DNA of 64,000 nucleotides from Candidatus Spongiisocius sp. (GTDB lineage: Bacteria; Actinomycetota; Acidimicrobiia; Spongiisociales; Spongiisociaceae). This document shows positions 3,782 through 47,456 of this stretch, piece by piece (position 1 is the first letter of the stretch; each line of letters begins with the position of its first letter). Under the pieces are notes generated by a model. That model worked only from the letters and a program-made list of their open reading frames with translations. It ran no database searches and was not told the origin of the DNA. The stretch spans positions 2,201,437 through 2,265,436 of the forward strand of contig OZ241858.1 in NCBI GenBank assembly GCA_965203035.1. The letters are read 5' to 3'. The position numbers and the translations under genes were made by a program.

Positions 3782-3838
3782 GGACCGTAAGGAGGGTAAT
3801 CACCCGCGTGCCCGTACTCCCGCGGGCCGACCCGCTCC

Positions 3839-4552
3839 GTGGGAGGCAAGGGGCTTCCCATGGACGTCCTTGGCCGGTACAAGTACGGGGGCGTTGTGGA
3901 TGGAGGAGGTGCCATGTCCGAGACGTCATCCGGGCGCGGCATTCGCGCCGGGGCGCCGGGTATTCCAGTGTCCCGCCGGGGCGCTTCGCTCGTCCTGGGA
4001 GGCGCGCTGGTGCTCGTGATCGGATTCGCCCTCTGGAACCGGCCCCAGGCACCTCCGGCGGAGTCCCAACCCTCCCCGGAGGTTCTGGTCGTGCCCGTGT
4101 CCGCGGTCGAGACCCCTCCGGCTCTGGCGACCGTTCATGTCTCGGGCGCGGTCGCGGCGCCCGGCCTGGTGGTGTTGCCGGAAGGAAGCCGGGTGGCCGA
4201 TGCGATCGCGGGGGTGGGCGGCGCACTGCCCGGCTCGGAGCTTCGACTGATCAACCTGGCTGCGCCGGTAGCGGACGGCATGCATCTCGATGTTCCGTGG
4301 GCCGGCGACGGGACGGGCACGGGGATCGCACCGTCCGGCGCGGCGGGATCGGGCTACCCGGTAGACCTGAACCGGGCGGATCACGAGGCTCTCACCGGCA
4401 TTCCCGGGGTGGGCGAGGTGCTGGCGCTGCGCATCGCCGCACACAGGGAGGCCCACGGTCCGTTCACCACCATGGAGGACCTCCTGGACGTTCCGGGCAT
4501 CGGCGAAGGCAGGCTGGCCGGAATGCGCGACTACGTGGAGGTGGGTCGATAG
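3839..4552 (+). CDS. comEA: Competence protein ComEA (helix-hairpin-helix DNA-binding/uptake protein)
   Basis: N-terminal TM helix and C-terminal tandem HhH motifs (LNRADHEALTGIPGVGEVLALRIAAHREAHGPFTTMEDLLDVPGIGEGRL). The start could instead be a downstream in-frame ATG. Confidence 0.8.
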   Translation: MGGKGLPMDVLGRYKYGGVVDGGGAMSETSSGRGIRAGAPGIPVSRRGASLVLGGALVLVIGFALWNRPQAPPAESQPSPEVLVVPVSAVETPPALATVHVSGAVAAPGLVVLPEGSRVADAIAGVGGALPGSELRLINLAAPVADGMHLDVPWAGDGTGTGIAPSGAAGSGYPVDLNRADHEALTGIPGVGEVLALRIAAHREAHGPFTTMEDLLDVPGIGEGRLAGMRDYVEVGR

Positions 4553-4614
4553 GCCGCCTGCCGGACCCGGGAGCGAGATGGTTCCTGGCCGGCGCCGGCG
4601 CCATCTGGATCGGA

Positions 4615-6702: not shown

Positions 6703-6750
6703 CAGCTCGGCTCGGTTCTAAGCGACCTCCCATCGCTACGATCCGGCCCG

Positions 6751-7500
6751 ATGGCCATGACGACTCAGCGCAAGCGGATCCTGATCACCGGAGCCGGCAG
6801 GTGGAACAAGGGGGAGGAGGGGGGCCTGGGCGCGGCGCTGGCGATCCGGCTCGCCGGCCAGGGACACACCGTCGTCGTCAACCACCGTTCCAGCGGCGAA
6901 TCGGCCGAGCGGCTGGTCGAGGCGATCCGGAACCGGGCGGCGAGCGCACTGGCCGTCCGGGCGGACGTCACCGATCCGGACGACGTGGAGAGGATGGGGA
7001 GGACCATCGAGCAGGAACTCGGCGGACTCGACGCGGTGATCAACAACGCCGGCCTTTTCCTGATCAAGGACTACGAACACCTGACCCCCGATGAGTGGGA
7101 GTCGCAGATAGCGTCGACCGCGACGGCCACCTACTACGTGTCCAACATCCTGCTGCCCTTGCTGCGCGAGCAGGGCGGAAGGATCATCAACATCGCCGAC
7201 GCGGGCGCCGATCGGATCACCGCCCGGCCCCGCACCCTTCCGTACCACATCGGCAAGATGGGAGTGCTGATGATCACCCGGACCATGGCCAGGGCGGAGG
7301 CCGGCCATGGTGTCACTGTCAACGCCATCCTTCCGGGGGTCCTGGAGAACTCCGAACCCCTTCCGGATCGGGCCCGCATACCGGCGGGACGCCACGGCAC
7401 CGCGGACGACGTCCTGGAAGCGGTCACGTTCCTCCTGAGCGAGAAGGCCGGCTACGTCACCGGCGCCTTCATCCAGGTCGGTGGGGGCTGGAACCTCTAG
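6751..7500 (+). CDS. SDR-family short-chain dehydrogenase/reductase
   Basis: Rossmann TGAGRWNKG...GxG motif, NNAG motif, and the YxxxK catalytic region (LPYHIGKMG). Confidence 0.75.
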   Translation: MAMTTQRKRILITGAGRWNKGEEGGLGAALAIRLAGQGHTVVVNHRSSGESAERLVEAIRNRAASALAVRADVTDPDDVERMGRTIEQELGGLDAVINNAGLFLIKDYEHLTPDEWESQIASTATATYYVSNILLPLLREQGGRIINIADAGADRITARPRTLPYHIGKMGVLMITRTMARAEAGHGVTVNAILPGVLENSEPLPDRARIPAGRHGTADDVLEAVTFLLSEKAGYVTGAFIQVGGGWNL

Positions 7501-7582
7501 TGGTTCGCGGGATGACGGTGTGCTACGACCGCCGGGCCATGCCTGATGGTTCAGCACGCATACCCTCGGCCCGGATCCGCTC

Positions 7583-8572
7583 GTGAATGCCCTTACCCAC
7601 CTCAAGGGTCCCTCCAGACCCGGTCCGGGCGACCGGAAAGTTCTGCTGGACCGGGCCGGTGAGCTGTTCGCCGGCGCCGAGATCGAGCCGACCGACATCA
7701 TCCGGATCGACGTGCCGGGCCGGGGCCAGTCGGTAGGGGGAGAGGGCCTGCTGAGGCCCGAGCTCGAACCGATCGTGCCCGCCCTGCAGTCGGGATCCCT
7801 GTTCGGCGGGCGTACGGGTGTCATGTTGATGGACGCTCAGCTACTCCAGTCCGATGAGGCTGCCGTCGTGACCGATCTACTCGCTCACCAGGCCGGTGGG
7901 ATCCCGCCGGTGGTGCTGGTCACGAGCGGAAAGCTCCCGTCCCCGCTCGCAGCCCATGTGAAGAGGAACGCCGAGGTGATAACGGTCCGCAAGCTGGCCG
8001 ACCGTGACGTCGCCCTGTGGGTGCGCGACGCCGCCCGCCGGCGCGGGTTACGCCTCGGTTCGGACGCCGCTCAGGCCCTTGTCCAGCGCTTCGGATCCGA
8101 CGTCGGGGCCATCGACCACGCTCTCGACCAACTGAGCATTTCCGGGGGGCCGGTAACCGAACAGGTCATCCTGGACCGCTTCCGCAACCGGCCGGACCAG
8201 CCCCTTTGGAAGCTGACCGACGCCCTCGGGAAGGGGGCCGCAGAGGAAGCCATCCGCCGGCTGCATGATCTCCTCACCCACGGGCACCCCCTCGTTCTTG
8301 TGGCGACCATCGAGAACGACCTCCGGAAAAGGGCGCTGGCCGCGGCCGCGCCGGATATCGCCACGTTCGCGGAGTGGATCGGCGGTAAGCCCGGCGCCTA
8401 CCCGACCCGGAAGGCATGGCAGGCAGGACGGGCCATGTCAAGGGAGGATCTGAACAGGGCCGTAGATGCTGTTCGCAGGGCCGATGCCACGCTGAAAGGT
8501 ATGCCGCCAGAGACCCACCTACCGACCTTGGAGCGCTTGGTGGCCGCCCTCTGCATCTGGTACCGCGGTTAG
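7583..8572 (+). CDS. holA: DNA polymerase III delta subunit
   Basis: Conserved position downstream of comEC. Length and overall similarity fit the HolA family. The stop codon TAG is the first unit of the heptamer array. Confidence 0.7.
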   Translation: MNALTHLKGPSRPGPGDRKVLLDRAGELFAGAEIEPTDIIRIDVPGRGQSVGGEGLLRPELEPIVPALQSGSLFGGRTGVMLMDAQLLQSDEAAVVTDLLAHQAGGIPPVVLVTSGKLPSPLAAHVKRNAEVITVRKLADRDVALWVRDAARRRGLRLGSDAAQALVQRFGSDVGAIDHALDQLSISGGPVTEQVILDRFRNRPDQPLWKLTDALGKGAAEEAIRRLHDLLTHGHPLVLVATIENDLRKRALAAAAPDIATFAEWIGGKPGAYPTRKAWQAGRAMSREDLNRAVDAVRRADATLKGMPPETHLPTLERLVAALCIWYRG

Positions 8573-12242: not shown

Positions 12243-14839
12243 CACCTCGCGTCAAGTCCATCATCACCGGGGTGATCCTGGTGGCGACCGCGGGTCTCTC
12301 CTGGGCCGGCATGCTGATCGAGCAGCAGTTCACCACTGTCCAGGTGGTCCCGGGGGAGCCGGCGCCTCAGGCCTTCGTGGCGGAGTCCCCGATCGAGATC
12401 GAGGATTCCGCCGCCACCGAGATCGCCCGCCAGGCGGCCCGGGATTCGGTAAACCCGGTCTACGGGCGGCACGAGGACATCGACGCCTTGGTGATCAACG
12501 ACATCCAGGCATTTTTCCGGTCGCTCAGAGTCGCCACCGTGGATCAGGGTGCCCGCCCCTTGCCGGTGGTTACCACCACTAGCACGGTGGTCCCACCGGC
12601 GGCGGCCACCACGACCGTTGCCACGACCGTTGACTCAGTGGCCGCTCCCGGCACGGAGGCGGAACCGCCCACGGTTTCCGAGGAGGCGCCCACGCCGACC
12701 ACCCTGCCCGCGGCCGTGGCCGCGACGGCGGGTGTCACCGGGCGGGTGTTCATCGACACCGACGCCAACGGGTTCTTCAGCCTGGGCGTGGATCACGGAC
12801 TGGGCGAGGTGAGGGTGGTGGCCTACGACACGACCGGCACCCGCTTCGAAACGGTCACCTTCTCCGACGGCCGGTACTCGCTCGGGCGGATGGCTCCAGG
12901 GCCCGCGGCCGTCCTCATAGACACCGACACCGTTCCTGACCGGTTGACCGGACCGGAGCGGTTTCTCTACCAGGATGTCGAACTCGTGGAAGGCCAGGAG
13001 ACATCGACCATCCACATTCCGCTCCGGCTCGCGGTGACACCTAAGGACACCCAGTTGGCCAGCCTCCAGGCGAGCGGCCTGCTGCTGTCCGATAGTGCGG
13101 TTTCCCTTCTAGTGGACATCGCCACGGGGGACGTCCTGCGCGAGATACTGGGTGATGAGGCGTGGCTGCTCTCTATCGAACGCGAGACCCTCCTGCTGGC
13201 GACCGAGGCCCTGAATACCGACGGCGGGATCCTCAGCGAGGAGCTTCGCGACGTCCAGATACAGTTCCGCTCGACCCCTAGGTTCGTGCAGCTCCCTGAC
13301 GCCGATTCGGCGGTCTGGCAACAAGTCTCCCAGGTGGTTCCCGAAGTTGCCACCGTGTTCCTGGCTGCCAACAAGACGGTCGACGCCGTGGCCACGGAGA
13401 GCCTCCGGGAGGAGGAGGCCGCTGGAGTGGCCTCCTTGACCACCCGGTTCGAAGCGGGTGAAGTGATCATCGACGAGGGTCAGGAGGTGACGGAGGAGAT
13501 CGAGGCCGCCCTGTCCGAGGCGGGATTGCTCGGGGCGGCGGCACCCCGTTACCTGGCGCTGGCCGCAGCGGTGGCCATCGTGGTCGGGCTGCCGGCGCTC
13601 TACCTGTACCGGTTCCAGTCGAGTGTGTGGAAGTCGATGCGCCGCATGTCCCTGTTCGGCCTGCTGGTGGTGCTCGCGGCGGTGTCCGCCCGCGGGGCGG
13701 CCGTGTTGGCGGCCGGGGGAGACGGTGCGATCGGGTTCCTGATGCCGGCGGCCGCCTTCGGCCTGATGACCGCCATCCTCTTCGATGCGCGGACCGCGGT
13801 GTTGATGGCGGTGGTGGTGGGGTCTATGACGGCCATCGCCACCACCGATCCGGCCTACACGCTGTACGCCGGCCTGTCGGTCCTGGTCCCGATCACGTTC
13901 GTATCGGCCATCTCGGCGCGGCGCGACCTGCGGAGGGCGGGCCTGTACATCATGGCGATGTGCGGGGCCTTCGCAGCTCTGATCGCCTGGTTCTTCCCCC
14001 AGGACATCAGCATTCTCCGGGCGGCCGCGTTCGCGGTCGGAGGCGGCGCCATCTCCTGGCTGGTCGGGAGTTCGCTACTCTCCGTTTTCGAGATCGTGTT
14101 CGACATCACAACGTCTTTGCGCCTCCTGGACCTGACCGATCGCAACCATCCTGCGCTCCGCCTCCTCGAGGAGAAGGCCATCGGCTCCTTCAACCACTCC
14201 CTGATGGTGGGCACGCTGGCCGATCGCGCGGCCCGGGCGGTGGGGGCCAACCCCTTGCTGGCCCGAGCCGCCGCCTACTACCACGATCTCGGCAAGACCG
14301 AGCACCCGCAGTTCTTCATCGAGAACCAATTCGGCATCCAGAACCCCCACGACGAGATGCCCCCGTTGCAGTCCGCCGAGGTGCTGCGCCGTCATGTGCT
14401 CGACGGGCTTAGCCTGGCCCGCAAGTTCAGGATTCCCGGAGATGTGGCCGAGGCCGTCATCACCCATCATGGCGACGGCATCATGCATTTCTTCTACGAC
14501 AAGGCCCGGAAGGAGTACGGCGCCGATGCCGTGGACCGGGAGGATTACCGTCACGCCGGGCGCAAACCGGTCAAGAAGGAAATGGCCATTGTGATGATGG
14601 CCGACTCGGTCGAAGGCGCCTGCCGGGCGGTCTTCCAGGTGGAGGAGCCGACGCCCGAGCGTATCGAGCGGTTGGTCGAGAAGGTGGTGGGAGAGAAGGT
14701 GACCGACGGCCAGCTCTCTGCTTCGGATGTGACGCTTGGTGACCTCACCAAGGTGAAGGAAGCCATGGTCGAGGCGCTGGTAGGGCATTACCACCAGCGC
14801 ATCCCCTACCCGAACTTTCCCGAAGGAGAACCGGTTTGA
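12239..14839 (+). CDS. 7TM-HD membrane phosphohydrolase (YqfF/7TMR-HDED family) with an extended T/P/A-rich extracellular region
   Basis: HD domain (HSLMVGTLADRAA...AYYHDLGK) after a 7-TM block. Conserved phoH-yqfF-ybeY-era neighbourhood. Confidence 0.85.
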   Translation: MTPRVKSIITGVILVATAGLSWAGMLIEQQFTTVQVVPGEPAPQAFVAESPIEIEDSAATEIARQAARDSVNPVYGRHEDIDALVINDIQAFFRSLRVATVDQGARPLPVVTTTSTVVPPAAATTTVATTVDSVAAPGTEAEPPTVSEEAPTPTTLPAAVAATAGVTGRVFIDTDANGFFSLGVDHGLGEVRVVAYDTTGTRFETVTFSDGRYSLGRMAPGPAAVLIDTDTVPDRLTGPERFLYQDVELVEGQETSTIHIPLRLAVTPKDTQLASLQASGLLLSDSAVSLLVDIATGDVLREILGDEAWLLSIERETLLLATEALNTDGGILSEELRDVQIQFRSTPRFVQLPDADSAVWQQVSQVVPEVATVFLAANKTVDAVATESLREEEAAGVASLTTRFEAGEVIIDEGQEVTEEIEAALSEAGLLGAAAPRYLALAAAVAIVVGLPALYLYRFQSSVWKSMRRMSLFGLLVVLAAVSARGAAVLAAGGDGAIGFLMPAAAFGLMTAILFDARTAVLMAVVVGSMTAIATTDPAYTLYAGLSVLVPITFVSAISARRDLRRAGLYIMAMCGAFAALIAWFFPQDISILRAAAFAVGGGAISWLVGSSLLSVFEIVFDITTSLRLLDLTDRNHPALRLLEEKAIGSFNHSLMVGTLADRAARAVGANPLLARAAAYYHDLGKTEHPQFFIENQFGIQNPHDEMPPLQSAEVLRRHVLDGLSLARKFRIPGDVAEAVITHHGDGIMHFFYDKARKEYGADAVDREDYRHAGRKPVKKEMAIVMMADSVEGACRAVFQVEEPTPERIERLVEKVVGEKVTDGQLSASDVTLGDLTKVKEAMVEALVGHYHQRIPYPNFPEGEPV

Positions 14840-21028: not shown

Positions 21029-21783
21029 GGCGCCGGGGCGGATCGGAAGGCCTCGTATCCTTCCTCCTCGAGCCGGCGGGCCAGCTCGGCGCCACCGGAT
21101 CTCACGATCCGGCCATCCACCAGTACGTGGACGTGGTCGGGCGTGATGTAGTCGAGCAGCCGCTGGTAATGGGTGATCACCACGAACCCGCGCTCGGCCC
21201 CGGCCAGGCGGTTCACCCCTTCGGCCACCACCTGCAGCGCGTCGATGTCGAGCCCCGAGTCCGTCTCGTCCATGATGGCCAGTTCCGGCTCGAGCACCGC
21301 CATCTGCAGGACCTCGTTGCGCTTGCGCTCGCCTCCGGAGAACCCCTGGTTCACGTAGCGGTCGGCGAAGGATGCGTCCATTCCGAGCGACTCCATCGCG
21401 TCCATGACCCGCAACCGCAACTCCAGCACGGTGTAATCGACACCGGTCCGGTTGCTGAGCGCGGTGCGCAGGAAGTTGACGACCGATACGCCCGGTATCT
21501 CCTCCGGATACTGGAAGGCGAGGAACATCCCCATGTTGGCCCGGGTGGGCGGGTCGGCATCGGTGATGTCCTCCCCCTTGAAAGAGACGGTCCCGGACGT
21601 GACCTCGTAACCCGGATGTCCCATCAGGACCTTGGCCAGGGTGGACTTCCCGGAGCCGTTGGGCCCCATGATGGCGTGGACCTCGCCCCGGCAGGTCGCC
21701 AGGTCGACGCCTTGCAGGATGGGTTGCCCATCGACAGACGCATGCAGGCCTTCAACGGCCAGCAGGGGGCCAGGGTCGGTCAA
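21025..21783 (-). CDS. sufC: Fe-S cluster assembly ATPase SufC
   Basis: Walker A (GPNGSGKST), signature (FSGGERKRNEVLQMAVLEP), Walker B (IMDETDSGLD). The start is probably TTG at 21783; the ORF-track extension is rejected. Confidence 0.85.
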   Translation of the reverse strand: MTDPGPLLAVEGLHASVDGQPILQGVDLATCRGEVHAIMGPNGSGKSTLAKVLMGHPGYEVTSGTVSFKGEDITDADPPTRANMGMFLAFQYPEEIPGVSVVNFLRTALSNRTGVDYTVLELRLRVMDAMESLGMDASFADRYVNQGFSGGERKRNEVLQMAVLEPELAIMDETDSGLDIDALQVVAEGVNRLAGAERGFVVITHYQRLLDYITPDHVHVLVDGRIVRSGGAELARRLEEEGYEAFRSAPAP

Positions 21784-22094
21784 GATCGGATCTCCTGGAG
21801 AGCGAAGCGAGTGCGCGCCCCAGGCTACCCGTCCCGCTGCGGTGTCGGTAAACCAATGGACGGTTACCACCGCCGTCCACCTGAAGGGTGCCGGGAAATG
21901 TCGTCCTGCCGACGCCCAAGACTTGATTTCGGTCAGCGGAAGCCCGGCCGGATCAAGCCGTCCCCATCGACGCCCCCTCCCGGTACTGTCGACCCAAGAT
22001 CACGACTGCGAGCCGCAGCCCGGGAACCGATCGGCGGTCCCGGTACGTCATAGGGAGGAATTGGCTGATCAGATGTCCCTATGGAAGGAGCCGA

Positions 22095-24232
22095 GGATGA
22101 GAAGGCACGCATCTTGGTTGGTGGGCTTGGCCCTCATTGCCGGGGCTTGCGCTCCCGACCCGGCCACGGCGCCCCCGCCGGACGCATCGATCGTAGGCAC
22201 CACCGAACATCGGGAGCCGACGGTGGCGACGGCCGGCGGTTCTATAGCCTCGACCACCGTTCTCGACAACGCGGTGGGCCTGTTCGCCTCGGCACTGGTG
22301 GAGTTCGACTCCTGCGATGCGTTCCTCGGCCACGTCAAGGCGGAAGCAATGGAGCGCGTCGGACCCTACGGCCTGCCCGGTGCGGGCTATTTCGGCCCGG
22401 AGCTCTGGAACGGCGAGATTCTGGAAGAGGCCATGGTCGAGGAGGCGGCCGCCGACGCGTCTGACACCGCGACGGCAGCATCCTCCCCGGCACCGCAGGC
22501 CGGAGTGGATTACTCGACGACCAACGTCCAGGAGATCGGCGTCGACGAACCCGACATCGTCAAGACCGACGGAAATCGGATCCTCGTGCTGGCTCAGGGC
22601 ATCCTGTACTACGTCGACGTGTCGTCAGGTCGCCCTGACCTCCTGGGATGGTTGGATCTCTGGTCCCGGGATTCCCGGGAGGGTGAGGACGCGGAGTTCT
22701 GGCGTCACGAGATGTTCCTCGGCGCCGGCAGCGCGTTGCTGATTGCCGGCGGGCGCGGGGCGGACGGAGATCTCACCCAGGTGGTCCAGGTCGATCTGTC
22801 CGACCCCGAGAACCTGGCCGTGACGGCCACTCTCACGGTGGAGGGCAGGTACGTGTCGGCCCGCCTGGTGGGGGAACGGGCCAGCCTGGTCATCTCCTCC
22901 CGGCCGCACGAGCGGCTCCCGTGGGTATATCCCGGATCGAGGTCGGCCGAGCCGAGGGCCGAGCTGAGCAACCGGATGACCATCGAGGAGTCGACTCTGG
23001 AGGACTGGGCCCCGGGCTATGTCCGCGAGGGCACCGGCGGCGTCTCCGAAGGCCTGTTCCTCGACTGCGCGTCGGCATTCGCCCCCAAGGAGTTCTCCGG
23101 GTTCGACTTCCTGTCCGTGCTGAGCCTGGACATCGCCGGCGGTGTCGAGATCGACGCGGTATCCACCGTGATGTCAGGAGGCGACACGATCTACGCCTCG
23201 TCAACCGACCTCTACGTGGCCACCGAGCGCTGGGTTGATTGGTCCGTCCTCGATGAGGAGGAGGCGATCAGCGAAGCCGAGACCATCCGCACCTATATCC
23301 ATCAATTCGACATCGCCGGGGCGGACGGGGCCGAGTATCTCGCGAGCGGATCGGTGAACGGATACCTCCTGAACCAGTTCGCCATGTCAGAGCACGACGG
23401 CCATCTGCGGGTGGCGTCCACCAACGAGCCGCCCTGGGGTTGGTGGTTCGACGAGAACCGACCTTCCGTGAGCCGGGTTGACGTCCTGGCGAGGGATGGC
23501 CGCCAACTCCGGGTCGTCGGGTCAGTGGGCGGCCTCGGTGAGGGCGAGCGGATCTTCGCCGTCCGGTTCATCGGCGAGGTCGGGTACGTGGTCACCTTCC
23601 GCCAGACCGATCCGCTGTACACCATCGACCTGTCCGACCCAGAAGACCCCCGGGTGGTGGGCGAGCTCAAGATCCTCGGCTACTCCGCCTACCTGCACCC
23701 GATCGGAGAGGGGCTCCTGCTGGGAATCGGTCAGGACGCTGATGAGCAGGGCAGGACGCGCGGCGCCCAGGTCTCGGTGTTCGACGTGTCCGATCTGGCC
23801 AACCCGATTCGTATCCATCAGTTCACCCTCGAGGACTCGTTCTCCGAGGTTGAGTGGGATCACCGAGCTTTCCTGTACTGGGCCCCGGAGGAGATAGCCG
23901 TCATGCCGGTCAGCTGGTGGGAGCAGGATGTCCAGTCGGGCTCCTGGGATGGTCGCGCGGGCGCATTCGTCCTGTCGGTCGGCGCCGGAGGCATCCGGCA
24001 GCGGGCGACTATAGAGCACGAGATCAAGAACGCGCGCGGCATCTCCGAGGAGGAACTCCGCTACATGTACTGGTGGCTCCTGCCGATCCGCCGCTCCCTG
24101 GTGGTGGGTGACACCCTCTTTACCCTCTCGGAAGGCGGCCTGCTGGGATCGGACCTGGGGACATTCGAGCCAACCTCCTGGATCGGGTTTCAGATCCCGG
24201 ACTACGGGGTGCCGGAACCCGTCATCTACTGA
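22095..24232 (+). CDS. Secreted lipoprotein with a beta-propeller domain (Beta_propel-like family). Function unknown.
   Basis: Lipobox (LALIAGAC) at the second in-frame ATG, preceded by AAGGAG. Repeated propeller-like blocks. No catalytic motifs recognised. Confidence 0.65.
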
Positions 24233-26975: not shown

Positions 26976-28286
26976 ATGCCAACCACAGTGTCCATGCCGC
27001 AGTTGGGCGAGACGGTGACGGAGGGCACCGTGCTCCGGTGGATGAAGCAGGTGGGTGACTCCATCGCTCGCGACGAGGCCATCGTCGAGATCTCCACGGA
27101 CAAGGTCGACACGGAAGTTCCGTCGCCGGTGGCCGGTGTGGTCAGCGAGATACTTGTCGGAGAGGGTGACACGATCGAGGTTGGCACGGCCATGGTGGTG
27201 ATCGCCTCGCCGGACGAAGACTCGACGGCCGCACCTTCCGTGGGGGTCGAGACGCCCGACTCGGAGGAGGGGGGTGTGCCCCGGTCGGCGGCCGCTCCGG
27301 TTGCCGCTCCGGCCCTTACACCTGCGCGTTCCGACCGGCCCGGGCCCCGCAAGTTCCTGTCGCCGGTGGTTCGCCGCCTGGCCCGGGAGCACGACATCGA
27401 CCCGAGCGTCATCGACGGCACCGGGCGGGACGGCCGGGTGACGCGCAACGATGTGCTCGCCTACATCGAGAGCATGAAGGCGAAGCCCGAACCGGCGCCC
27501 GCGCCACCGCCCGATCCGTCCCCGTCCCCGGCCCCGGCCCCGGCCCCGGCTGATCCTGTCCCCCCGACCGATGAGCCCGCGAAGCTCAGCCGGCTGCGGG
27601 TGCGAATCGCCGACAACATGGTCGCTTCCCTGCGAACCGCCGCCCACGTGTGGACCTCGATGGAGGTCGACTACGAGCAGGTGGAGAGGGTGCGCCGGGC
27701 CCATCGCGAGTCCTTCCGCCGGCAGGAAGGGTTCTCGCTCACCTACCTGCCGTTCATCGCCCGCGCCACGCTGGACGCCCTCCGGGCCTTTCCGGTGGTC
27801 AACAGCTCTTTCGACCAGCAGGGGCGCACCGCCACCTTCCACCAGGATGTCGACCTCGGCATCGCCGTCGACCTCAACCAGGATGGCCTGATGGTGGTCA
27901 CCATCCGGAAGGCGGATGACTACTCGGTGAGAGCCCTCGCCAGAAAGGTTCGCGACCTGGCGGTACGCGCACGCAGCGGTCGGGTGGGCCCCGGTGACGT
28001 ATCGGGTAGCACCTTCACGATCACCAACCCCGGACCCTACGGATCGTTCATGTCGGTCCCGATCATCAACGTTCCCAATGTGGCCATCCTCTCGACCGAC
28101 GGGATCGCCAAACGCCCCAAGGTGATAACCACGCCCGATGGAGCGGACGCCATCGCCATCAGGCACCTGGGTTACCTCGGCCTGTCGTGGGATCATCGAG
28201 CCTTCGACGGATCCGTCGCGGTCCTGTTCCTGCGCCGGATAAAGGAAAACCTGGAGAACTGGGATTGGGAACAGCAACTGATCTAG
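26976..28286 (+). CDS. Dihydrolipoamide acyltransferase E2 component (lipoyl domain, E3-binding domain, catalytic domain)
   Basis: Lipoyl-lysine motif (EISTDKVDTEV), Pro/Ala-rich linkers, and a catalytic C-terminus (DHRAFDG). Confidence 0.9.
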   Translation: MPTTVSMPQLGETVTEGTVLRWMKQVGDSIARDEAIVEISTDKVDTEVPSPVAGVVSEILVGEGDTIEVGTAMVVIASPDEDSTAAPSVGVETPDSEEGGVPRSAAAPVAAPALTPARSDRPGPRKFLSPVVRRLAREHDIDPSVIDGTGRDGRVTRNDVLAYIESMKAKPEPAPAPPPDPSPSPAPAPAPADPVPPTDEPAKLSRLRVRIADNMVASLRTAAHVWTSMEVDYEQVERVRRAHRESFRRQEGFSLTYLPFIARATLDALRAFPVVNSSFDQQGRTATFHQDVDLGIAVDLNQDGLMVVTIRKADDYSVRALARKVRDLAVRARSGRVGPGDVSGSTFTITNPGPYGSFMSVPIINVPNVAILSTDGIAKRPKVITTPDGADAIAIRHLGYLGLSWDHRAFDGSVAVLFLRRIKENLENWDWEQQLI

Positions 28287-30043
28287 AACCGGTCCTGCTC
28301 ACGGCCGAACCTGACCGGCGGTTCCGGGTCGCGGCCGACCCGGCCCGGCTGCGTACCAGGTGGTTGGGCCGTCTCGCCTACGGCGAGGCCTGGGATCTGC
28401 AACGCGCCTTCTGGGAAGGTCGGCAGACCGGCCGGGCCACGTCCGATTACCTGCTCCTCCAAGAACATCCCCATGTCTATACGGTGGGGCGCAACGGCGA
28501 CGGCTCCCACCTCCTGATTCCCGAAGAGGGCTTGGCCGGCATAGGCGCGCGGCGTTTCGACATCGATCGCGGTGGCGACATCACCTACCACGGCCCCGGA
28601 CAGCTGGTCGGCTATCCCATCGTGGCCCTGGCCGACCTGCGGAAGATCGTCCCCTACGTCCGGGCCGTGGAGGAGGTTCTGATCCGTACGCTCTCCGACT
28701 TCGGAGTGGAGGCTTGGCGCGATACCGGGTACACGGGAGTCTGGACCGACCGGGGGAAGATCGCAGCGATCGGCGTACGCGTGGCGCGGGGCGTCACTAT
28801 GCATGGCTTCGCCCTGAACGTCGATCCCGATATGGGCTATTTCGATCATATGAACCCCTGCGGCATCACCGACCGGCCCGTCACCTCCCTGGTGGAGTTG
28901 CTGGGATGGAAGGTCTCCATCGAGGAGGCGGTGGACGTACTGGTCCCTCGCTTCGTGGAGGTGTTCGGATACCAGGAGAACGACCTCCAGCTGGGCGCCT
29001 TCACGCGGGGACAGGGACGGCCCCGGGCATTCGAGGTGGATCGGCTGCTCGCCGAGGGAACCTTCGCTCCGAAGGGTCGGGCCGCCGTGCCGGTGACGAT
29101 CGGCAAGCGGCTGGAGGGCGAGCCGCCCCGGGCGCCCTGGATGAAGGTGACCGCCCGCCTGGGACCCGAATACCGGCAGCTCGGGAGGCTGATGCGGGAG
29201 CTCGACCTCCACACCGTGTGCGAGGAAGCAGGCTGCCCGAACATCTACGAGTGCTGGAGCGAGGGCGCCGCCACCATCATGATCCTCGGTGGCGTCTGCA
29301 CCCGGGCATGCGGTTTCTGCGACGTCACGACGGGCCGCCCCCAGGGACTCGACCTGAACGAGCCGGCCCGGGTGGCCGAGGCGATAGCTGCCATGGGACT
29401 GCGCCACGCCGTGATCACGTCGGTCAACCGCGATGACCTGCCCGACGGCGGCTCGACCGTCTTCGCCAGGACGGTGCAGGAGGTGCGGAGTCGGGTACCG
29501 GAGTGCGACGTCGAGGTGCTGATTCCCGACTTCAAGGGGGTCAGGGGGGACCTGGAGCGGGTCATGGATGCGGGGCCGGCGGTCCTGAACCACAACACCG
29601 AGACCGTGCTCCGGTTGCAGCGTGAGGTGCGAACCGCCGCCTCGTACGGACGCTCACTCGCCCTCCTGGCCCGTGCGAAGTGGCACCGGCCGGACGGGGT
29701 GGTGAAGTCGGGCTTGATCGTGGGCATGGGCGAGACCCGTGAGGAGGTCCTGGGCGCCATAGCCGACCTCCGGGCGGTCGGTGTGGATGTGGTCACGGTA
29801 GGCCAGTACCTGCGGCCCACGGTCAGGCACCGCCCCGTCCACCGCTACGTGCACCCCGACGAGTTCGACGAGTACGCCGACTTCGGCCGGCGGATCGGTC
29901 TGGCGCACATCGAGTCAGGCCCGCTGGTGCGGTCGTCGTACCACGCCCGGGACTCCCTGGACGCAGCCGCCACGTCCGAGGGTCGGCAACCATCGGCGGT
30001 CGCCGGCCCTGATCCGTCCCGGTTGCCGGCAACACTCACGTAG
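28265..30043 (+). CDS. Apparent fusion of octanoyltransferase LipB (N-terminal) and lipoyl synthase LipA (C-terminal) in one uninterrupted reading frame
   Basis: LipB block (LQEHPHVYTVGRNG...HGPGQLVGYPIV...NPCGI). LipA radical-SAM block (CEEAGCPNIYECW...CTRACGFCDV). No stop codon separates them. The start is uncertain (TTG at 28265 or 28364). Confidence 0.75.
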   Translation: MGTATDLEPVLLTAEPDRRFRVAADPARLRTRWLGRLAYGEAWDLQRAFWEGRQTGRATSDYLLLQEHPHVYTVGRNGDGSHLLIPEEGLAGIGARRFDIDRGGDITYHGPGQLVGYPIVALADLRKIVPYVRAVEEVLIRTLSDFGVEAWRDTGYTGVWTDRGKIAAIGVRVARGVTMHGFALNVDPDMGYFDHMNPCGITDRPVTSLVELLGWKVSIEEAVDVLVPRFVEVFGYQENDLQLGAFTRGQGRPRAFEVDRLLAEGTFAPKGRAAVPVTIGKRLEGEPPRAPWMKVTARLGPEYRQLGRLMRELDLHTVCEEAGCPNIYECWSEGAATIMILGGVCTRACGFCDVTTGRPQGLDLNEPARVAEAIAAMGLRHAVITSVNRDDLPDGGSTVFARTVQEVRSRVPECDVEVLIPDFKGVRGDLERVMDAGPAVLNHNTETVLRLQREVRTAASYGRSLALLARAKWHRPDGVVKSGLIVGMGETREEVLGAIADLRAVGVDVVTVGQYLRPTVRHRPVHRYVHPDEFDEYADFGRRIGLAHIESGPLVRSSYHARDSLDAAATSEGRQPSAVAGPDPSRLPATLT

Positions 30044-32937: not shown

Positions 32938-33007
32938 ACCGCTCCCCGGAGGCCTGATCGACCGGCCTCGTCGCCCTTCTGGGTCAGCTAGCGAAGAGCG
33001 AGGACCC

Positions 33008-33039
33008 AAAAAAAGACCCGGCCCCAAATGGGCCGGGTG
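33008..33039 (-). terminator. Rho-independent terminator on the minus strand: 10-bp GC stem (GACCCGGCCC/GGGCCGGGTC), loop ATTTG, then a T7 tract.
   Basis: The plus strand shows AAAAAAA GACCCGGCCC caaat GGGCCGGGT. No annotated minus-strand gene lies upstream of it. Confidence 0.55.
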
Positions 33040-33510
33040 GGTAACCGCCCTCTAACGCTGGCGCGTCAGGGGCGAAGCGCTGGGATCGAATGTAACACGA
33101 GTCAAGGTCCAGAGACAAGGAGCAGGTTGAGTCACCAGTCTGGGGGACGTCGATACGGTCCTACCGTCTCCGGGAGTTGACATGAGCGGAAATCGTCTTC
33201 CGTGAGCCGGTACCACCAATGGTTGCCGACACCCTCATCCGGATCTCCCTGTAGATCCCCAGCTGTCGGGTTACGGCGCGGGTGCCGGTCGGACGGGAAC
33301 CACGCACGAAATGCTGAATCCGACACTTTCGGAACCGTTCGCACTACGTTTTCGGAATCATTTGCCACTACGTTTCCGGAGTCTGCCCTCTCCGGCAAGG
33401 CAACTGTGGACCGTGGCCGGACATGTCTGGAGGTGCGCTGTTCCGGATCTCCTGCGACCGTGCGAAGATAGGTCCGCGTTGAACGGTCCAGCCAACCCAG
33501 GTGTGGAGAT

Positions 33511-34263
33511 ATGGATCCAGCCGGATATCTGAGCGCCCTGGTCTTCGGGGCACTTTCCTTCGTGTCGCCCTGCGTCCTGCCCCTGTTGCCCGGATACCTG
33601 GGGCTCATGTCCGGCTACTCGGTGGCTGACCTGCAGCAGGGGAAGGCCTCCACCGCCCGGATGCTCCGGGTCACCGTGATGTTCGTGGTCGGGCTGACGA
33701 TCGTGTTCGTGGCCCTAGGAGCGGGGGCAACCTCGGTGGCCGGCCTGCTCGCCCGCAACAAGGGAGCCATCACCACGGTGGCGGGCTGGATGATCGCCGT
33801 GTTCGGGCTGGTCATCGTGCTGATGGCGCTCAGCACGTCGCCCCGCCTGGCCTTCCTCTACCGGGAGCGCCGGCTCCACTTGCGCCCTTCGCAGTTGGGG
33901 GGTTGGGCGCCGCTGTTGATGGGCATGGCATTCGGTTTCGGCTGGACCCCGTGCATCGGGCCGGTGCTGGCGGCCATCCTCACACAGGCCGCCACCCAGG
34001 AGACGGTCGGCCGGGGGATGCTCCTGCTGTTCGTCTTCTCGATGGGTATGGGCCTTCCGTTCATCGCCGCCGGGATCGGGGTGACCAAGCTCTACTCGGG
34101 GATCAAGCTCCTCCAGCGCCACCTGCGGACCATCAACGTCCTGTCGGGCCTCCTGATGATGGTCTTCGGCTGGCTGTTCATCACAGGCCGTATCACGGAC
34201 CTGTCGAGCCTGGTGAGTGAGTGGATGATCCGGCTCGGCCTCGAGGGTCTGGCCTCAATCTGA
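33511..34263 (+). CDS. ccdA: Cytochrome c biogenesis protein CcdA (DsbD-family thiol-disulfide transporter)
   Basis: Conserved Cys pair in TM1 (FVSPCVLPLLPGY) and the 6-TM DsbD-core topology. Confidence 0.85.
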   Translation: MDPAGYLSALVFGALSFVSPCVLPLLPGYLGLMSGYSVADLQQGKASTARMLRVTVMFVVGLTIVFVALGAGATSVAGLLARNKGAITTVAGWMIAVFGLVIVLMALSTSPRLAFLYRERRLHLRPSQLGGWAPLLMGMAFGFGWTPCIGPVLAAILTQAATQETVGRGMLLLFVFSMGMGLPFIAAGIGVTKLYSGIKLLQRHLRTINVLSGLLMMVFGWLFITGRITDLSSLVSEWMIRLGLEGLASI

Positions 34264-34373: not shown

Positions 34374-35873
34374 GTGATGGGAGGACTCGTGGGCAGGCCG
34401 GCTGCCTGGGTATTGGCCGTTGTCCTTGTCGCGGGCCTGGTGGTCACGGAGCCGCCCGGCGCCGTTCAAGCCCAGGATGCGGAGCTCTGCGACGCCTCCG
34501 GCGCCCGCCTTTTCGCCGACGTCGCTGCCGGCGACTACGCCGCCGAGTACATCCTCTGCATGAGGGTTCTCAGCCTCACCCAAGGGAACTCCAGCGGGGG
34601 ATACGGCCCGGACGACACCTTGAACCGGGGGCAGATGGCGTCGTTCATCGTGCGCCTCTGGCGGGACATCCTCGGCGGGGAGTGCCCGACCGGAGACACG
34701 CCCTTCACGGATGTGCCGAGCACAGGCACCCACGCCGCCAATATCGCGTGCCTGTACAACCTCGGGATCACCAAGGGCGTCTCCGACACCGAGTTCGCTT
34801 CGCACAACCCGGTGAAGACCTCCCAGGTGTCCAGGTTCTTCCTAAGGATCTACGAGCGACACGGTGGTAAGTGTCCTGATCGGGCGTCGGAACTCGACGA
34901 GGCGGTCGAGTGCCTGGAATCCCTCCATGTCATCCCCACAGCCGGCGAGGGCCGGAGCAGCCGGGCCATGATCAGATCGCAGATGGCCGTCTACATGATC
35001 GGCCTGTGGCACAACCTCGAGTACGGTCCTCCGCCCGTTCCGCCCCTCCTCGGCACCCCGACCGAAGTCCGTGGCGCTGGCCTCGCGCCGGCCCTGCTCT
35101 CGCAGATCACGGTCGCTCCGGAGTGGATCACCGGCTACAGCCGCAGCCTCTTCGACCATTGGAAGGACCTGGACGGGGACGGTTGCGACACCCGCCGCGA
35201 GGTGCTGATCAGGGACTCGAGAATCGATCCGGCGATGGACAGTGGCCGCACCTGCTGGGTGACCTCGGGTCTCTGGTACTCGTACTACGACGGCATCTGG
35301 CTCACGGATCCCTCCGAACTCGACATCGACCATCTGGTTCCGCTGGCGGAGGCCTGGGCGTCGGGCGCCCATCTCTGGAACCCTGACCGGCGCGAACAAT
35401 TCGCCAATGACGAGAACGCGCTCGTAGCGGTCACGGCCGGGTCCAACCGGAGCAAGGGCGCCCGCGATCCGGCCGAGTGGATGCCGGCCGACGACGCCGG
35501 CTACTGCCCGTACGCAGCGGCATGGGTGGCCGTCAAGGCCCGCTACGACCTCACTATGGATCGGACGGAGTACGACTTCCTCGCGGACGTGCTCGACGGG
35601 ACCTGTGCCACCACGACCGTGAACCTGGACACACCGATCCTGGCGTTCCCCGTGCTGGCGATTCCGGAACTGCCGGCCGTCGCGCCCACGACCACCACCA
35701 CGTCAGCCCAGGGGAGGCCTCCGGACCCGGGCGACAGCAAGAACTGCTCCGATTTCTCCACCCACCGCGATGCGCAGGAATGGTTCGATCGCTACTTCCC
35801 CTACTACGGCGACGTGGCCAGGCTGGACCGGGACGGCGACGGTGTGGCCTGCGAGTCCCTCCCGCGGGGCTGA
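34374..35873 (+). CDS. Secreted multidomain protein: signal peptide, three SLH-like repeats, DUF1524 HNH-like nuclease domain, C-terminal Excalibur calcium-binding domain
   Basis: SLH-like F(A/T)DV motifs. DUF1524 block (DIDHLVPLAEAW...NRSKGARDP). Excalibur block (NCSDF...LDRDGDGVACE). Confidence 0.7.
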   Translation: MMGGLVGRPAAWVLAVVLVAGLVVTEPPGAVQAQDAELCDASGARLFADVAAGDYAAEYILCMRVLSLTQGNSSGGYGPDDTLNRGQMASFIVRLWRDILGGECPTGDTPFTDVPSTGTHAANIACLYNLGITKGVSDTEFASHNPVKTSQVSRFFLRIYERHGGKCPDRASELDEAVECLESLHVIPTAGEGRSSRAMIRSQMAVYMIGLWHNLEYGPPPVPPLLGTPTEVRGAGLAPALLSQITVAPEWITGYSRSLFDHWKDLDGDGCDTRREVLIRDSRIDPAMDSGRTCWVTSGLWYSYYDGIWLTDPSELDIDHLVPLAEAWASGAHLWNPDRREQFANDENALVAVTAGSNRSKGARDPAEWMPADDAGYCPYAAAWVAVKARYDLTMDRTEYDFLADVLDGTCATTTVNLDTPILAFPVLAIPELPAVAPTTTTTSAQGRPPDPGDSKNCSDFSTHRDAQEWFDRYFPYYGDVARLDRDGDGVACESLPRG

Positions 35874-35908: not shown

Positions 35909-37345
35909 CTACCGCCAATCCCTGGCCAGGTCGCTCAGCCGTGCCCTGCCGAACAGTTGTGCGGCCGCCTCGGCGGCCACGGCCCTCACCTCGTCCTCGT
36001 CCACCCTCGTGGAACGCCCATCCTCAACGATGACTTCGCCCGCCACGATCACCATCTCGACATCGGCCGCGCTGCCGGAGTGAACCACCGACGCAACCGG
36101 GCGGCTCCATGGCGTATGCCGGACGCCGGAGACGTCGACAACCACCAGATCGGCCGCCCGGCCCGGTTCCAGCGAACCGGCCTCCAGACCGGTCATGGCC
36201 GCACCGCCCAGCGTTCCCAGTTCGAGAAACTGCTCCACAGTGGTGGCGGTCGAGTCCAGGCTGGCCACCCGGTGCATCAGCATGCCGGCCTTCATGGCCT
36301 CGAAGATGTCCTGCCCGGCGACTGCCACCCCGTCGCTGCCGAGGGCCACGGTGGCTCCGGCCGACAAGAGCGGATCCAGGTGGAGCACGCCGGAGGCCAG
36401 GTACTGGTTGGAGATCGGGTTGTGCACGGCTGTAGCGTTGGCAGCGCCCATGGCTGCTACCTCGTCGGGATCCAACCAGACGGCGTGAGCGAGCGTGGTG
36501 TGGCGGCTGAGCAGCCCGCGGTCCGCCAGCCAGGCCACCGGCCGGGTTCCGTGCACCTCCGTGAAGAACGAGATCTCGTCCTGGACCTCCGAACAGTGCA
36601 TGTGCCAGCGAACGTCGCCGGCCTCAGCCATCTCCGCGGAGGCCTCGATCAGCTCCGGCCATACGTAGACGATGTTCTCCGGACACGGCCAGACCTCGAC
36701 CAGGCCGCCTCGCGGGCGCTCCGCCATGCACTCCGCGGTGATGTCGAGTTCGTCCTGATTTGTCAGGGCGAACAGGTCCGGATCAACCCCCATCAGCTCT
36801 CCGCCAGGGTTCATCTCGCCGAAGATTCCCCGGGCGATGGCGCCCCTGATCCCCACCTCCTCCACCGCGTCGGCCACGGCCAGGATGGTCTCCGTGTCGG
36901 TAGGCGCATAGTGGTTGTCCACCACCATGGTGGTTCCGGACAGGGCGGCCTGAAGCGCGCCGAGGCGGACGGCGGCCACGCTCATCTCCCTGGTGATGGC
37001 CTTCGAGTAGGGGAGCATGAACCTCTGGAGCCAGGGAACCAGCGTCATGCCGTCGCCGAGCCCGCGGCCCAACGACTGGAACAGGTGCGTGTGGCCGTCG
37101 GTCATCCCGGGGAGGACCACCTTGCCCCGGCAGTCGATGACCTTCCCGGCAGTCTCCCGCAGTTCACGGAGTTCCCCGCTGTCGCCGACCGCCGTGATCT
37201 TCCCGTCTGCGAGGGCCACGGCGCCGCCATCCAGCACCCGCCGGTTCCCGTCGAGGGTGATCACCACCCCGCCCTCGAGCAAGAGGTCGCACTCGAGACG
37301 ATCAGGGGAAGAAGGAGTCTGGCTCATGGGTGACCTCCGTGTCAT
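35909..37345 (-). CDS. Metal-dependent amidohydrolase (MtaD/SsnA/chlorohydrolase-like deaminase family)
   Basis: HxH metal motif (DGHTHLFQS) and an amidohydrolase fold. Confidence 0.8.
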   Translation of the reverse strand: MTRRSPMSQTPSSPDRLECDLLLEGGVVITLDGNRRVLDGGAVALADGKITAVGDSGELRELRETAGKVIDCRGKVVLPGMTDGHTHLFQSLGRGLGDGMTLVPWLQRFMLPYSKAITREMSVAAVRLGALQAALSGTTMVVDNHYAPTDTETILAVADAVEEVGIRGAIARGIFGEMNPGGELMGVDPDLFALTNQDELDITAECMAERPRGGLVEVWPCPENIVYVWPELIEASAEMAEAGDVRWHMHCSEVQDEISFFTEVHGTRPVAWLADRGLLSRHTTLAHAVWLDPDEVAAMGAANATAVHNPISNQYLASGVLHLDPLLSAGATVALGSDGVAVAGQDIFEAMKAGMLMHRVASLDSTATTVEQFLELGTLGGAAMTGLEAGSLEPGRAADLVVVDVSGVRHTPWSRPVASVVHSGSAADVEMVIVAGEVIVEDGRSTRVDEDEVRAVAAEAAAQLFGRARLSDLARDWR

Positions 37346-37464: not shown

Positions 37465-37539
<75 letters not shown>

Positions 37540-37559
37540 ACCCCCGCTACCCGATACAG

Positions 37560-47368: not shown

Positions 47369-47452
47369 GCCGGGATGGCGGAATTGGTAGACGCGCCGGA
47401 CTCAAAATCCGGTGCCCCTTGGGGCGTATGGGTTCGAGTCCCATTCCCGGTA
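47369..47452 (+). tRNA. tRNA-Leu (anticodon CAA), type II with long variable arm
   Basis: GCCGGGATGGCGGAATTGGTAGACGCGCCGGACTCAAAATCCGG...GGGTTCGAGTCCCATTCCCGGTA. Confidence 0.85.
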
Positions 47453-47456
47453 CGGG

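Follow-up and report, generated by a model that had tools for sequence, protein, structure and literature searches.

A probable SLH-tethered, divalent-cation-dependent extracellular nuclease of sponge-symbiont-like Acidimicrobiia

What does a nuclease domain named after restriction enzymes do in a protein that appears to be exported and held at the cell surface? This question is raised by a 499-codon gene in a 64-kb stretch of the chromosome of Candidatus Spongiisocius sp. (contig OZ241858.1, positions 2,201,437 to 2,265,436; the whole stretch is called the window below, and positions are counted from its first letter). The initial annotation described the product as a nuclease that is exported, tethered to the wall and furnished with a calcium-binding tail, and this description was upheld in every computational test applied. 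We consider it likely that the gene encodes a Sec-exported, disulfide-stabilised, three-module protein, which is held outside the wall and hydrolyses extracellular nucleic acid. Its role is most likely neither restriction nor DNA uptake.

The open reading frame (ORF) has the codon bias of a real gene in a window and genome of 67% G+C, with a G+C content of 0.85 at third codon positions (GC3) and 0.52 at second positions (GC2). The start is ambiguous among GTG at 34374, ATG at 34377 and GTG at 34389, the last of which is preceded by GGGAGGA at 34379-34385, and the domain reading is the same for all three. An exact-sequence look-up of the window protein returned no entry, and a 97%-identical relative (P0001) served as its stand-in. 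A 97%-identical protein in RefSeq, a member of the same 90% cluster, is WP_420613224.1 of Candidatus Spongiisocius sp. (Acidimicrobiia, Ca. Spongiisociales), which makes a sponge-associated member of the Acidimicrobiia the probable source of the window. A tblastn search of the window found no second SLH, nuclease or Excalibur copy.

Domain architecture and the wall anchor

Three Pfam domains had been claimed for the protein, and a search with profile hidden Markov models placed each of them above its curated cut-off: S-layer homology (SLH, PF00395) with 33.1 bits (cut-off 20.8), GmrSD_C/DUF1524 (PF07510) with 30.6 bits (cut-off 23) at residues 273-404, and Excalibur (PF05901) with 31.7 bits (cut-off 22) at residues 456-494. 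The DUF1524 score is 33.7 bits for the nuclease core alone. The two strings quoted in support of these domains, DIDHLVP and DRDGDGVACE, are both found in the protein, at residues 317-323 and 485-494, and the second of them carries the DxDxDGxxCE motif of Excalibur. NCBIfam gave no usable match to the 499-aa protein. The scores of all three Pfam domains, together with the invariance of the active-site residues described below, support a three-module surface nuclease.

The N-terminus has the features of a Sec-type signal peptide. Residues 9-24 form the sole strongly hydrophobic stretch in the protein (mean Kyte-Doolittle value of 2.8 over 15 residues), and the N-terminal segment has neither a lipobox nor a twin-arginine motif. 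A putative V-Q-A/Q site after residue 33 fits the -3/-1 rule, and the pattern [V/A]-x-A/Q recurs among homologues; cleavage probably falls after A33. Exactly 12 cysteines are present in 27 of 31 full-length homologues and 13 in the other four, and the 12 positions of the query are largely conserved, as expected if folding takes place outside the cytoplasm. From the spacing of the cysteines, each SLH repeat would have one pair, the core two (C271/C294 and C378/C411) and Excalibur one (C458/C493).

The anchor is formed by the SLH region. Pfam scores two stretches of it, the best at residues 47-89, and leaves the degenerate third repeat unscored. In an AlphaFold2 model of the full protein, calculated from an alignment of 67 homologues, the three repeats form a three-pronged trimer, and the predicted local distance difference test (pLDDT) score has a mean of 82.7 and exceeds 90 across residues 80-210. 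In a Foldseek search, the fold of the trimer model matched SpaA and Sap (E 2.5e-6; template modelling score to the target, 0.71-0.80). The SLH motifs of SpaA are TRAE, TVEE and TRAQ, in which the two arginines bind the pyruvate ketal on the wall polymer (PMC6081394). At the TRAE position, the arginine of repeat 1 (R85) is found in 42 of 42 sequences and that of repeat 3 (R201) in 42 of 60. In repeat 2 this position is occupied by T149 here and by Ala in 37 of 51 sequences, and Arg is never dominant. This pattern of Arg, no Arg and Arg matches TRAE/TVEE/TRAQ of SpaA. In fold and key residues the protein agrees with SLH trimers that bind wall polymers, and a pyruvylated wall polymer is its presumed ligand. 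It differs from SpaA and SlhA of P. alvei and from Sap and the BSL proteins of B. anthracis in its host, an actinobacterium (Acidimicrobiia), in the conserved pair of Cys found in each SLH repeat, in the missing F-x-D-V start of repeat 3, and in its cargo, a nuclease instead of an S-layer lattice or a wall hydrolase.

The SLH part is also the most divergent part of the gene between close strains. In comparison with a near-identical strain (L002), identity is 99.2-99.9% for the flanking genes and the nuclease core and only 95.3% for the SLH part. Twenty-two of the 32 differences in the gene lie within codons 36-102, which cover SLH repeat 1 (34479..34679), where the synonymous divergence (dS) is 0.094 and the ratio of nonsynonymous to synonymous divergence (dN/dS) is 0.36; dS is 0 in the core. 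Positive selection on the anchor was considered and rejected, since the excess is mostly synonymous at this dN/dS; the divergence therefore looks like a recombination or gene-conversion tract.

Nuclease core and candidate calcium-binding loops

The core was modelled separately from residues 236-420 on 72 relatives, all of which match PF07510, and the model reached a pLDDT of 96.6 and a predicted template modelling (pTM) score of 0.90. The closest solved structure is Endonuclease I of Vibrio cholerae, at an identity of only 13%, and both the fold and the active-site layout of Endonuclease I are found in the query core. The core has the beta-beta-alpha-metal fold of His-Me nucleases. Motif definitions for such enzymes call for (D/E)-H-x-x-P followed by two Asn (PMC4619093; PMC12707154), and here they are D319-H320-L-V-P323, N345 and N358. 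GmrD, Gme-HNH and Vvn have a corresponding set, D/E-H ... N ... N (PMC4619093), and the residues fit the D-H-N-N pattern of HNH enzymes. D319, H320, R340, N345, N358 and K361 are invariant in all 72 relatives. H320 would act as the general base, D319 as a metal ligand, R340 as the phosphate-stabilising residue, N345 as a structural residue and N358 as a metal-binding residue.

Directly N-terminal of the Pfam match, which starts at residue 273, lies an EF-hand-like DxDxDG loop (residues 265-276) that was absent from the initial annotation. Among the 72 relatives, D265, C271, R274 and E276 are invariant and D267 and G270 are at least 93% conserved; D269 is invariant in 27 homologues. This loop is a candidate second Ca2+ site besides Excalibur, in which C458, D485, D489 and C493 are likewise invariant in 27 homologues. 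For the loop, Ca2+ binding is predicted from the motif only, and binding by the Excalibur tail is likewise a prediction.

How the core relates to known enzymes can be stated in two comparisons. The type IV enzymes GmrSD, BrxU and SspE, which combine DUF262 and DUF1524, belong to the same Pfam nuclease family and have the same D/E-H-x-x-P...N...N motif. The exported clade nevertheless resembles Endonuclease I and Vvn far more than the intracellular DUF1524 enzymes, and its geometry resembles that of the non-specific periplasmic or extracellular enzymes of this type. From the Endonuclease I family (PF04231; V. cholerae Endonuclease I, V. vulnificus Vvn and E. coli EndA), the query differs in that its core has two putative disulfides against four, and in that it has added DxDxDG Ca2+ loops, is wall-tethered and multi-domain, and is acidic where EndA is basic.

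Nucleases tethered to the Gram-positive surface are known in several forms: SpnA and SsnA with LPXTG anchors, Nuc2 of S. aureus, and YokF and YncB of B. subtilis, which are lipoproteins with SNase and Excalibur domains. The query shares with them the concept of a nuclease at the surface, and with YokF and YncB also the terminal Excalibur domain. Their folds are EEP or SNase whereas that of the query is His-Me, and their anchors are sortase-dependent or lipid whereas the SLH anchor is non-covalent.

Together, these modules suggest the following course. The protein would be exported by Sec, lose residues 1-33 on cleavage after A33, and fold oxidatively with six disulfides. The SLH trimer (residues ~45-217) would then bind non-covalently to pyruvylated wall polymer, and a Pro-rich tether of ~20 residues would carry the His-Me core. 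This core would use a single metal bound by D319 and N358, while H320 would serve as the base and R340 would contact the phosphate. The two DxDxDG sites (residues 265-276 and Excalibur) may hold structural or activating Ca2+, and through Ca2+ and disulfides together the enzyme would have stability and activity outside the cytoplasm only. The most likely role would be breakdown of environmental DNA or RNA at the surface for phosphorus, nitrogen, nucleosides or matrix remodelling.

Several points weigh against this reading. The main caution is the charge of the core: it is acidic (pI 4.34, net charge -15, window 35079..35633), as are 69 of 71 relatives (clade median pI 4.6), where mature EndA has a pI of 9.2. 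An acidic core is atypical of a non-specific DNA binder, and a strict need for cations or another phosphodiester substrate is conceivable. The likeness to Endonuclease I is structural only, as no match to PF04231 at E<=1 was obtained in any of the 72 relatives. An hhalign comparison of the clade profile with E. coli EndA was weak (E 0.053 over 31 active-site columns); the aligned strings, DIDHLVPLAEAW..W..RREQFAND and EWEHVVPAW..CW..GRKNCAKD, which put R340 opposite the Arg of GGRKNCAKD, are therefore illustrative and no proof of homology. A sequence search of the PDB with the whole protein and the 72-sequence clade profile gave SLH proteins and noise and no nuclease relative. No biochemical assay of any clade member was found in the searchable literature, and we infer nuclease activity for the clade as a whole. 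The call of the signal peptide is heuristic, made from hydropathy, the -3/-1 rule and conservation among homologues, and we infer the disulfide pairings from cysteine spacing. As for the anchor, the pyruvyl transferase CsaB (PF04230) was not seen among the Pfam-scanned proteins of the window or in the gene tables of the relatives' loci; the result holds for these proteins and tables only, the window being just 64 kb of the genome. Finally, neighbourhood and regulatory elements point to no particular physiological role.

Distribution and competing explanations

The initial annotation had also presented export of a DUF1524 protein as unusual, and this part is not supported. The clade has thousands of members, mostly in Actinomycetota, and a prediction of extracellular nucleases among them dates from 2017: exported DUF1524(-Excalibur) proteins form group 3 of a classification of His-Me fingers, and those with a C-terminal Excalibur are regarded as putative extracellular nucleases (Jablonska et al. 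2017, PMC5714182). A search with the core alone gave 2438 matches, mostly 'HNH endonuclease family proteins' of 180-300 aa from Streptomyces, Micromonospora, Nocardioides and others. The core is present in >596 species genomes, and its profile found 4298 50%-identity clusters at E<=1e-30 among 1.84 billion cluster representatives. Fungal secretome papers also list DUF1524 proteins. A signal-like hydrophobic N-terminus is present in 95 of the 119 closest relatives and a lipobox-like motif in 34; judged from such signals, export appears to be a property of the clade. The exported Actinomycetota proteins have cores 50-73% identical to that of the query and share its invariant residues, DxDxDGC loop and four core Cys, and many of them end in Excalibur and are predicted to be extracellular, as is the query. 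Most are only 180-300 aa long and consist of a signal peptide or lipobox and the core; the query is instead retained by a 185-aa SLH trimer, which takes the place of the lipid-anchored or free form. The clade is a predicted but uncharacterised kind, of which the query is one more member.

Even the full architecture is not rare. Among the best 120 of the 593 matches, at least 36 clusters have all three domains and another 14 have SLH and DUF1524 (at least 50 in total), and one match carries the JGI name 'S-layer homology domain/DUF1524/Excalibur'. The anchor itself varies. Three SLH repeats are N-terminal here and in other Acidimicrobiia, and stand between nuclease and Excalibur in Zhihengliuella and Arthrobacter (Micrococcaceae); wall-binding repeats of PF04122 are found in Microbacteriaceae-like proteins, and lipoprotein signals in relatives. 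Surface retention of the nuclease core has thus been reached repeatedly, by different anchors.

The SLH region is found with other cargo as well. A 185-aa cassette (window 34476..35039) with all six Cys kept stands at the N-terminus of other proteins at 55-60% identity (P0093-P0119), where it is followed by peptidase S9 or Tricorn/PD40 propellers, LRR, RCC1-like or FN3 domains. Up to five genes with this cassette occur in a row on one contig (L090, 10001..22223). It looks like a lineage-specific surface-display cassette. Since anchors vary on one core and cargo varies on one SLH cassette, we favour the view that the SLH trimer is a general display device and the nuclease one of its cargoes.

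Which other explanations would account for such a protein? The family name GmrSD_C might suggest an intracellular type IV restriction nuclease misread as secreted. This is extremely improbable in view of the signal peptide, the SLH trimer, Excalibur and the 12 conserved Cys; Pfam finds no DUF262 or ParB-like domain in the protein and PADLOC no model match. DUF262 is neither fused to it nor encoded alongside, the adjacent genes being those of a DsbD_TM protein and an amidohydrolase. The gene lies among housekeeping genes and in no defence island. An antibacterial nuclease toxin of the polymorphic toxin or bacteriocin class, delivered to competitors, is also very unlikely. The protein is exported, His-Me nucleases are common toxin modules (PMC5714182), and one SLH-DUF1524 gene (L091) lies in a variable island near cas genes. 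Against this stand the plain Sec signal, the lack of LXG, WXG, Rhs, CDI or translocation domains by Pfam, and an SLH anchor that keeps the protein on its producer. The gene is in the core genome among housekeeping genes, and in every neighbourhood examined a conserved small immunity-like ORF beside it was absent.

The initial annotation had placed comEA and comEC in the same window, which is correct, and had linked the nuclease to competence, which finds no support. As a competence nuclease it would process incoming DNA at the surface for uptake by ComEA/ComEC, like EndA of S. pneumoniae or NucA of B. subtilis, and a surface nuclease could in principle yield uptake substrates. The com genes are ~28 kb upstream in the conserved housekeeping block comEA-comEC-holA, and chaperone, lipoate, acetyl-CoA and fatty-acid genes lie between; it is this distance and block membership that leave the link unsupported. 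No com gene occurs within 8-10 kb of the homologues in four other, more distant genomes. Since nearly all Actinomycetota, to our knowledge, have comEA and comEC, their co-occurrence with the gene says nothing. Moreover, a tether would keep the protein outside the wall and away from the membrane channel. V. cholerae Endonuclease I, the structure that matches it best, we take to be the nuclease called Dns, and Dns antagonises transformation. We therefore regard a role in uptake as very unlikely. Somewhat less remote, if still improbable, is a wall-associated phosphodiesterase or binding protein with a non-DNA substrate (for instance RNA alone, signals of the cyclic or oligonucleotide type, or a wall polymer with phosphodiester links). 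The strongly acidic core of the clade, the placement of the enzyme on wall polymer and the lack of biochemical data on the clade speak for it, and the invariant D-H/R/N/N set and the fold, that of a sugar-non-specific nuclease, against it. We know of no His-Me finger enzyme that acts on non-nucleic-acid phosphodiesters.

The preferred reading, a surface-held nuclease acting on extracellular nucleic acid, can be extended to a wider one, which is speculative and rather doubtful. The exported clade (>4000 50%-identity clusters, mostly Actinomycetota) might be the Gram-positive structural counterpart of Vibrio Endonuclease I/Dns, disulfide-locked, Ca2+-gated by the EF-hand-like loop, harmless in the cytoplasm and active outside it only. 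In sponge-symbiont Acidimicrobiia, it would be mounted on the lineage-specific, cysteine-stapled SLH cassette and would harvest phosphorus and nucleosides from the DNA-rich mesohyl or regulate the amount of free DNA that reaches ComEA/ComEC. If activity is confirmed, a large and widespread family so far labelled 'HNH endonuclease family protein' or 'DUF1524' would gain a function, namely the turnover of extracellular nucleic acids by Actinomycetota of soil and sea. Display by SLH at the surface would then, if true, also be at work in Acidimicrobiia, by means of a modular cassette common to several cargo enzymes. For annotation, a PF07510 match with a signal peptide and without DUF262 should not be read as 'restriction enzyme'. 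The finding opens no long-standing question, and the architecture is already common in databases; its new points are modest ones, namely the likeness to Endonuclease I/Vvn, the EF-hand-like loop in the core and the reusable cysteine-stapled SLH cassette.

Genomic surroundings

The window is a piece of core chromosome (Table 1). It runs from ABC/ECF transporter genes through comEA, comEC, an SDR gene, holA-like, hrcA, dnaJ, phoH, a 7TM-HD gene, lpd, sucB, acs, fabI and a DsbD_TM gene to the target. On the 3' side of the target follow an amidohydrolase gene, tRNA-Met, a nitroreductase gene and a YkuD gene, and later polA, rpsA, uvrB and uvrA; synteny with L004 places the trp operon and lepA in the stretch between YkuD and polA. 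The block comEA-comEC-SDR-holA (3839..8572) has the usual housekeeping order and is followed by hrcA, dnaJ, phoH and 7TM-HD.

Table 1. Positions of the target gene, its parts and other features of the window
Feature	Position	Strand	Remarks
Complete coding sequence, 499 aa + stop	34374..35873	+	ORF list, GC3 0.85, 593 homologues
Sec-type signal peptide (predicted), residues 1-33	34374..34472	+	R8, hydrophobic core 9-24, V-Q-A/Q-D site
SLH repeat 1, residues 45-102	34506..34679	+	F47-x-D-V, G71, N-R85-G-Q (TRAE equivalent)
SLH repeat 2, residues 108-165	34695..34868	+	second Pfam SLH stretch; F111-T-D-V, G135, K-T149-S-Q
SLH repeat 3 (degenerate), residues 168-217	34875..35024	+	without F-x-D-V start; I-R201-S-Q kept
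Pro-rich flexible linker, residues 218-240	35025..35093	+	sequence YGPPPVPPLLGTPTEV; pLDDT 60-73, <50 at 231-234
His-Me (beta-beta-alpha-metal) nuclease core of the exported DUF1524 clade, residues 241-416	35094..35621	+	
EF-hand-like DxDxDG loop, D265-L-D-G-D-G-C-D-T-R-R-E276	35166..35201	+	directly N-terminal of Pfam match (starts 273)
Putative catalytic D-I-D319-H320-L-V-P323	35322..35342	+	D319, H320 invariant in 72/72 relatives
R340, N345, N358, K361, other putative active-site residues	35391..35456	+	all four invariant in 72/72 relatives
Pro/Thr-rich linker, residues 417-455	35622..35738	+	contains PAVAPTTTTTSAQGRPPDPG; pLDDT <50 at 434-446
Excalibur domain, residues 456-494	35739..35855	+	C458, D485-R-D-G-D-G-V-A-C493-E494; pLDDT 82-91
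comEA (SLBB + HHH_3)	3839..4552		housekeeping comEA-comEC-holA block, 3839..8572, including SDR
comEC (Competence + metallo-beta-lactamase)	within ORF 3808..6702, true start inside		same block
866-aa Beta_propel protein (PF09826, 432 bits), possibly exported	21632..24232	+	
Fused lipB-lipA (octanoyltransferase-lipoyl synthase), probable	28187..30043	+	downstream of lpd-sucB; synteny with L004
CcdA/DsbD_TM-type thiol-disulfide membrane transporter	33511..34263	+	110 bp upstream of target, no terminator-like site between
Amidohydrolase, nucleobase/nucleoside deaminase group (below equivalog cut-offs)	35909..37345	-	convergent neighbour of target
tRNA-Met (CAT)	37475..37551		between amidohydrolase and nitroreductase genes
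tRNA-Leu (CAA)	47369..47453		

Immediate synteny with the window is common to all relatives of at least 80% identity that were examined. In relatives of 45-59% identity, the homologue stands between a luciferase-like gene and an aminotransferase gene, and no conserved partner gene was found across the neighbourhoods of the relatives examined. A conserved unit of nuclease and amidohydrolase was considered and dropped, because the amidohydrolases of the two contexts are only 27% identical, and the SDRs 24%, and are thus not orthologous. In three of these relatives (L001, 492..12941; L006, 401..12921; L089, 1..12304) the adjoining genes code for a dihydropyrimidinase (TIGR02033, 560 bits), a CN-hydrolase, a class-III aminotransferase and a Mo-hydroxylase trio, which may be a pyrimidine catabolism block. 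In the window, the convergent neighbour is an amidohydrolase of the nucleobase or nucleoside deaminase group, and a nutritional theme is possible. The homologue in Zhihengliuella has tadA and upp as neighbours.

A DsbD_TM gene thus stands beside the gene of a 12-cysteine exported protein. Among the relatives, the two genes are neighbours only where identity is at least 80%. Promoter, terminator and Rfam scans around the gene gave no regulatory lead. The non-coding gap between fabI and the DsbD_TM gene is 573 bp long (32938..33510); it is 98.6% conserved in L002 and is 68 bp in L004, a relative of 80% identity. Within it are two copies of an 18-nt direct repeat, CACTACGTTTYCGGARTC (33342 and 33366), and, on the minus strand, a hairpin resembling a terminator (33038-33016); it has no Rfam match. 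Further upstream, the counterpart of 28187..30043 in L004 has a 584-aa product that matches LplA-B_cat, LIAS_N and Radical_SAM.

A different setting is seen in a metagenomic relative, L091 (1..20213), where an SLH-DUF1524 gene (12277..13683) lies beside an SLH-RCC1 gene in a variable island. This island also holds cas7-cas4-cas1-cas2, an N6 methyltransferase-like gene, a PLD-like gene and STAND ATPases.

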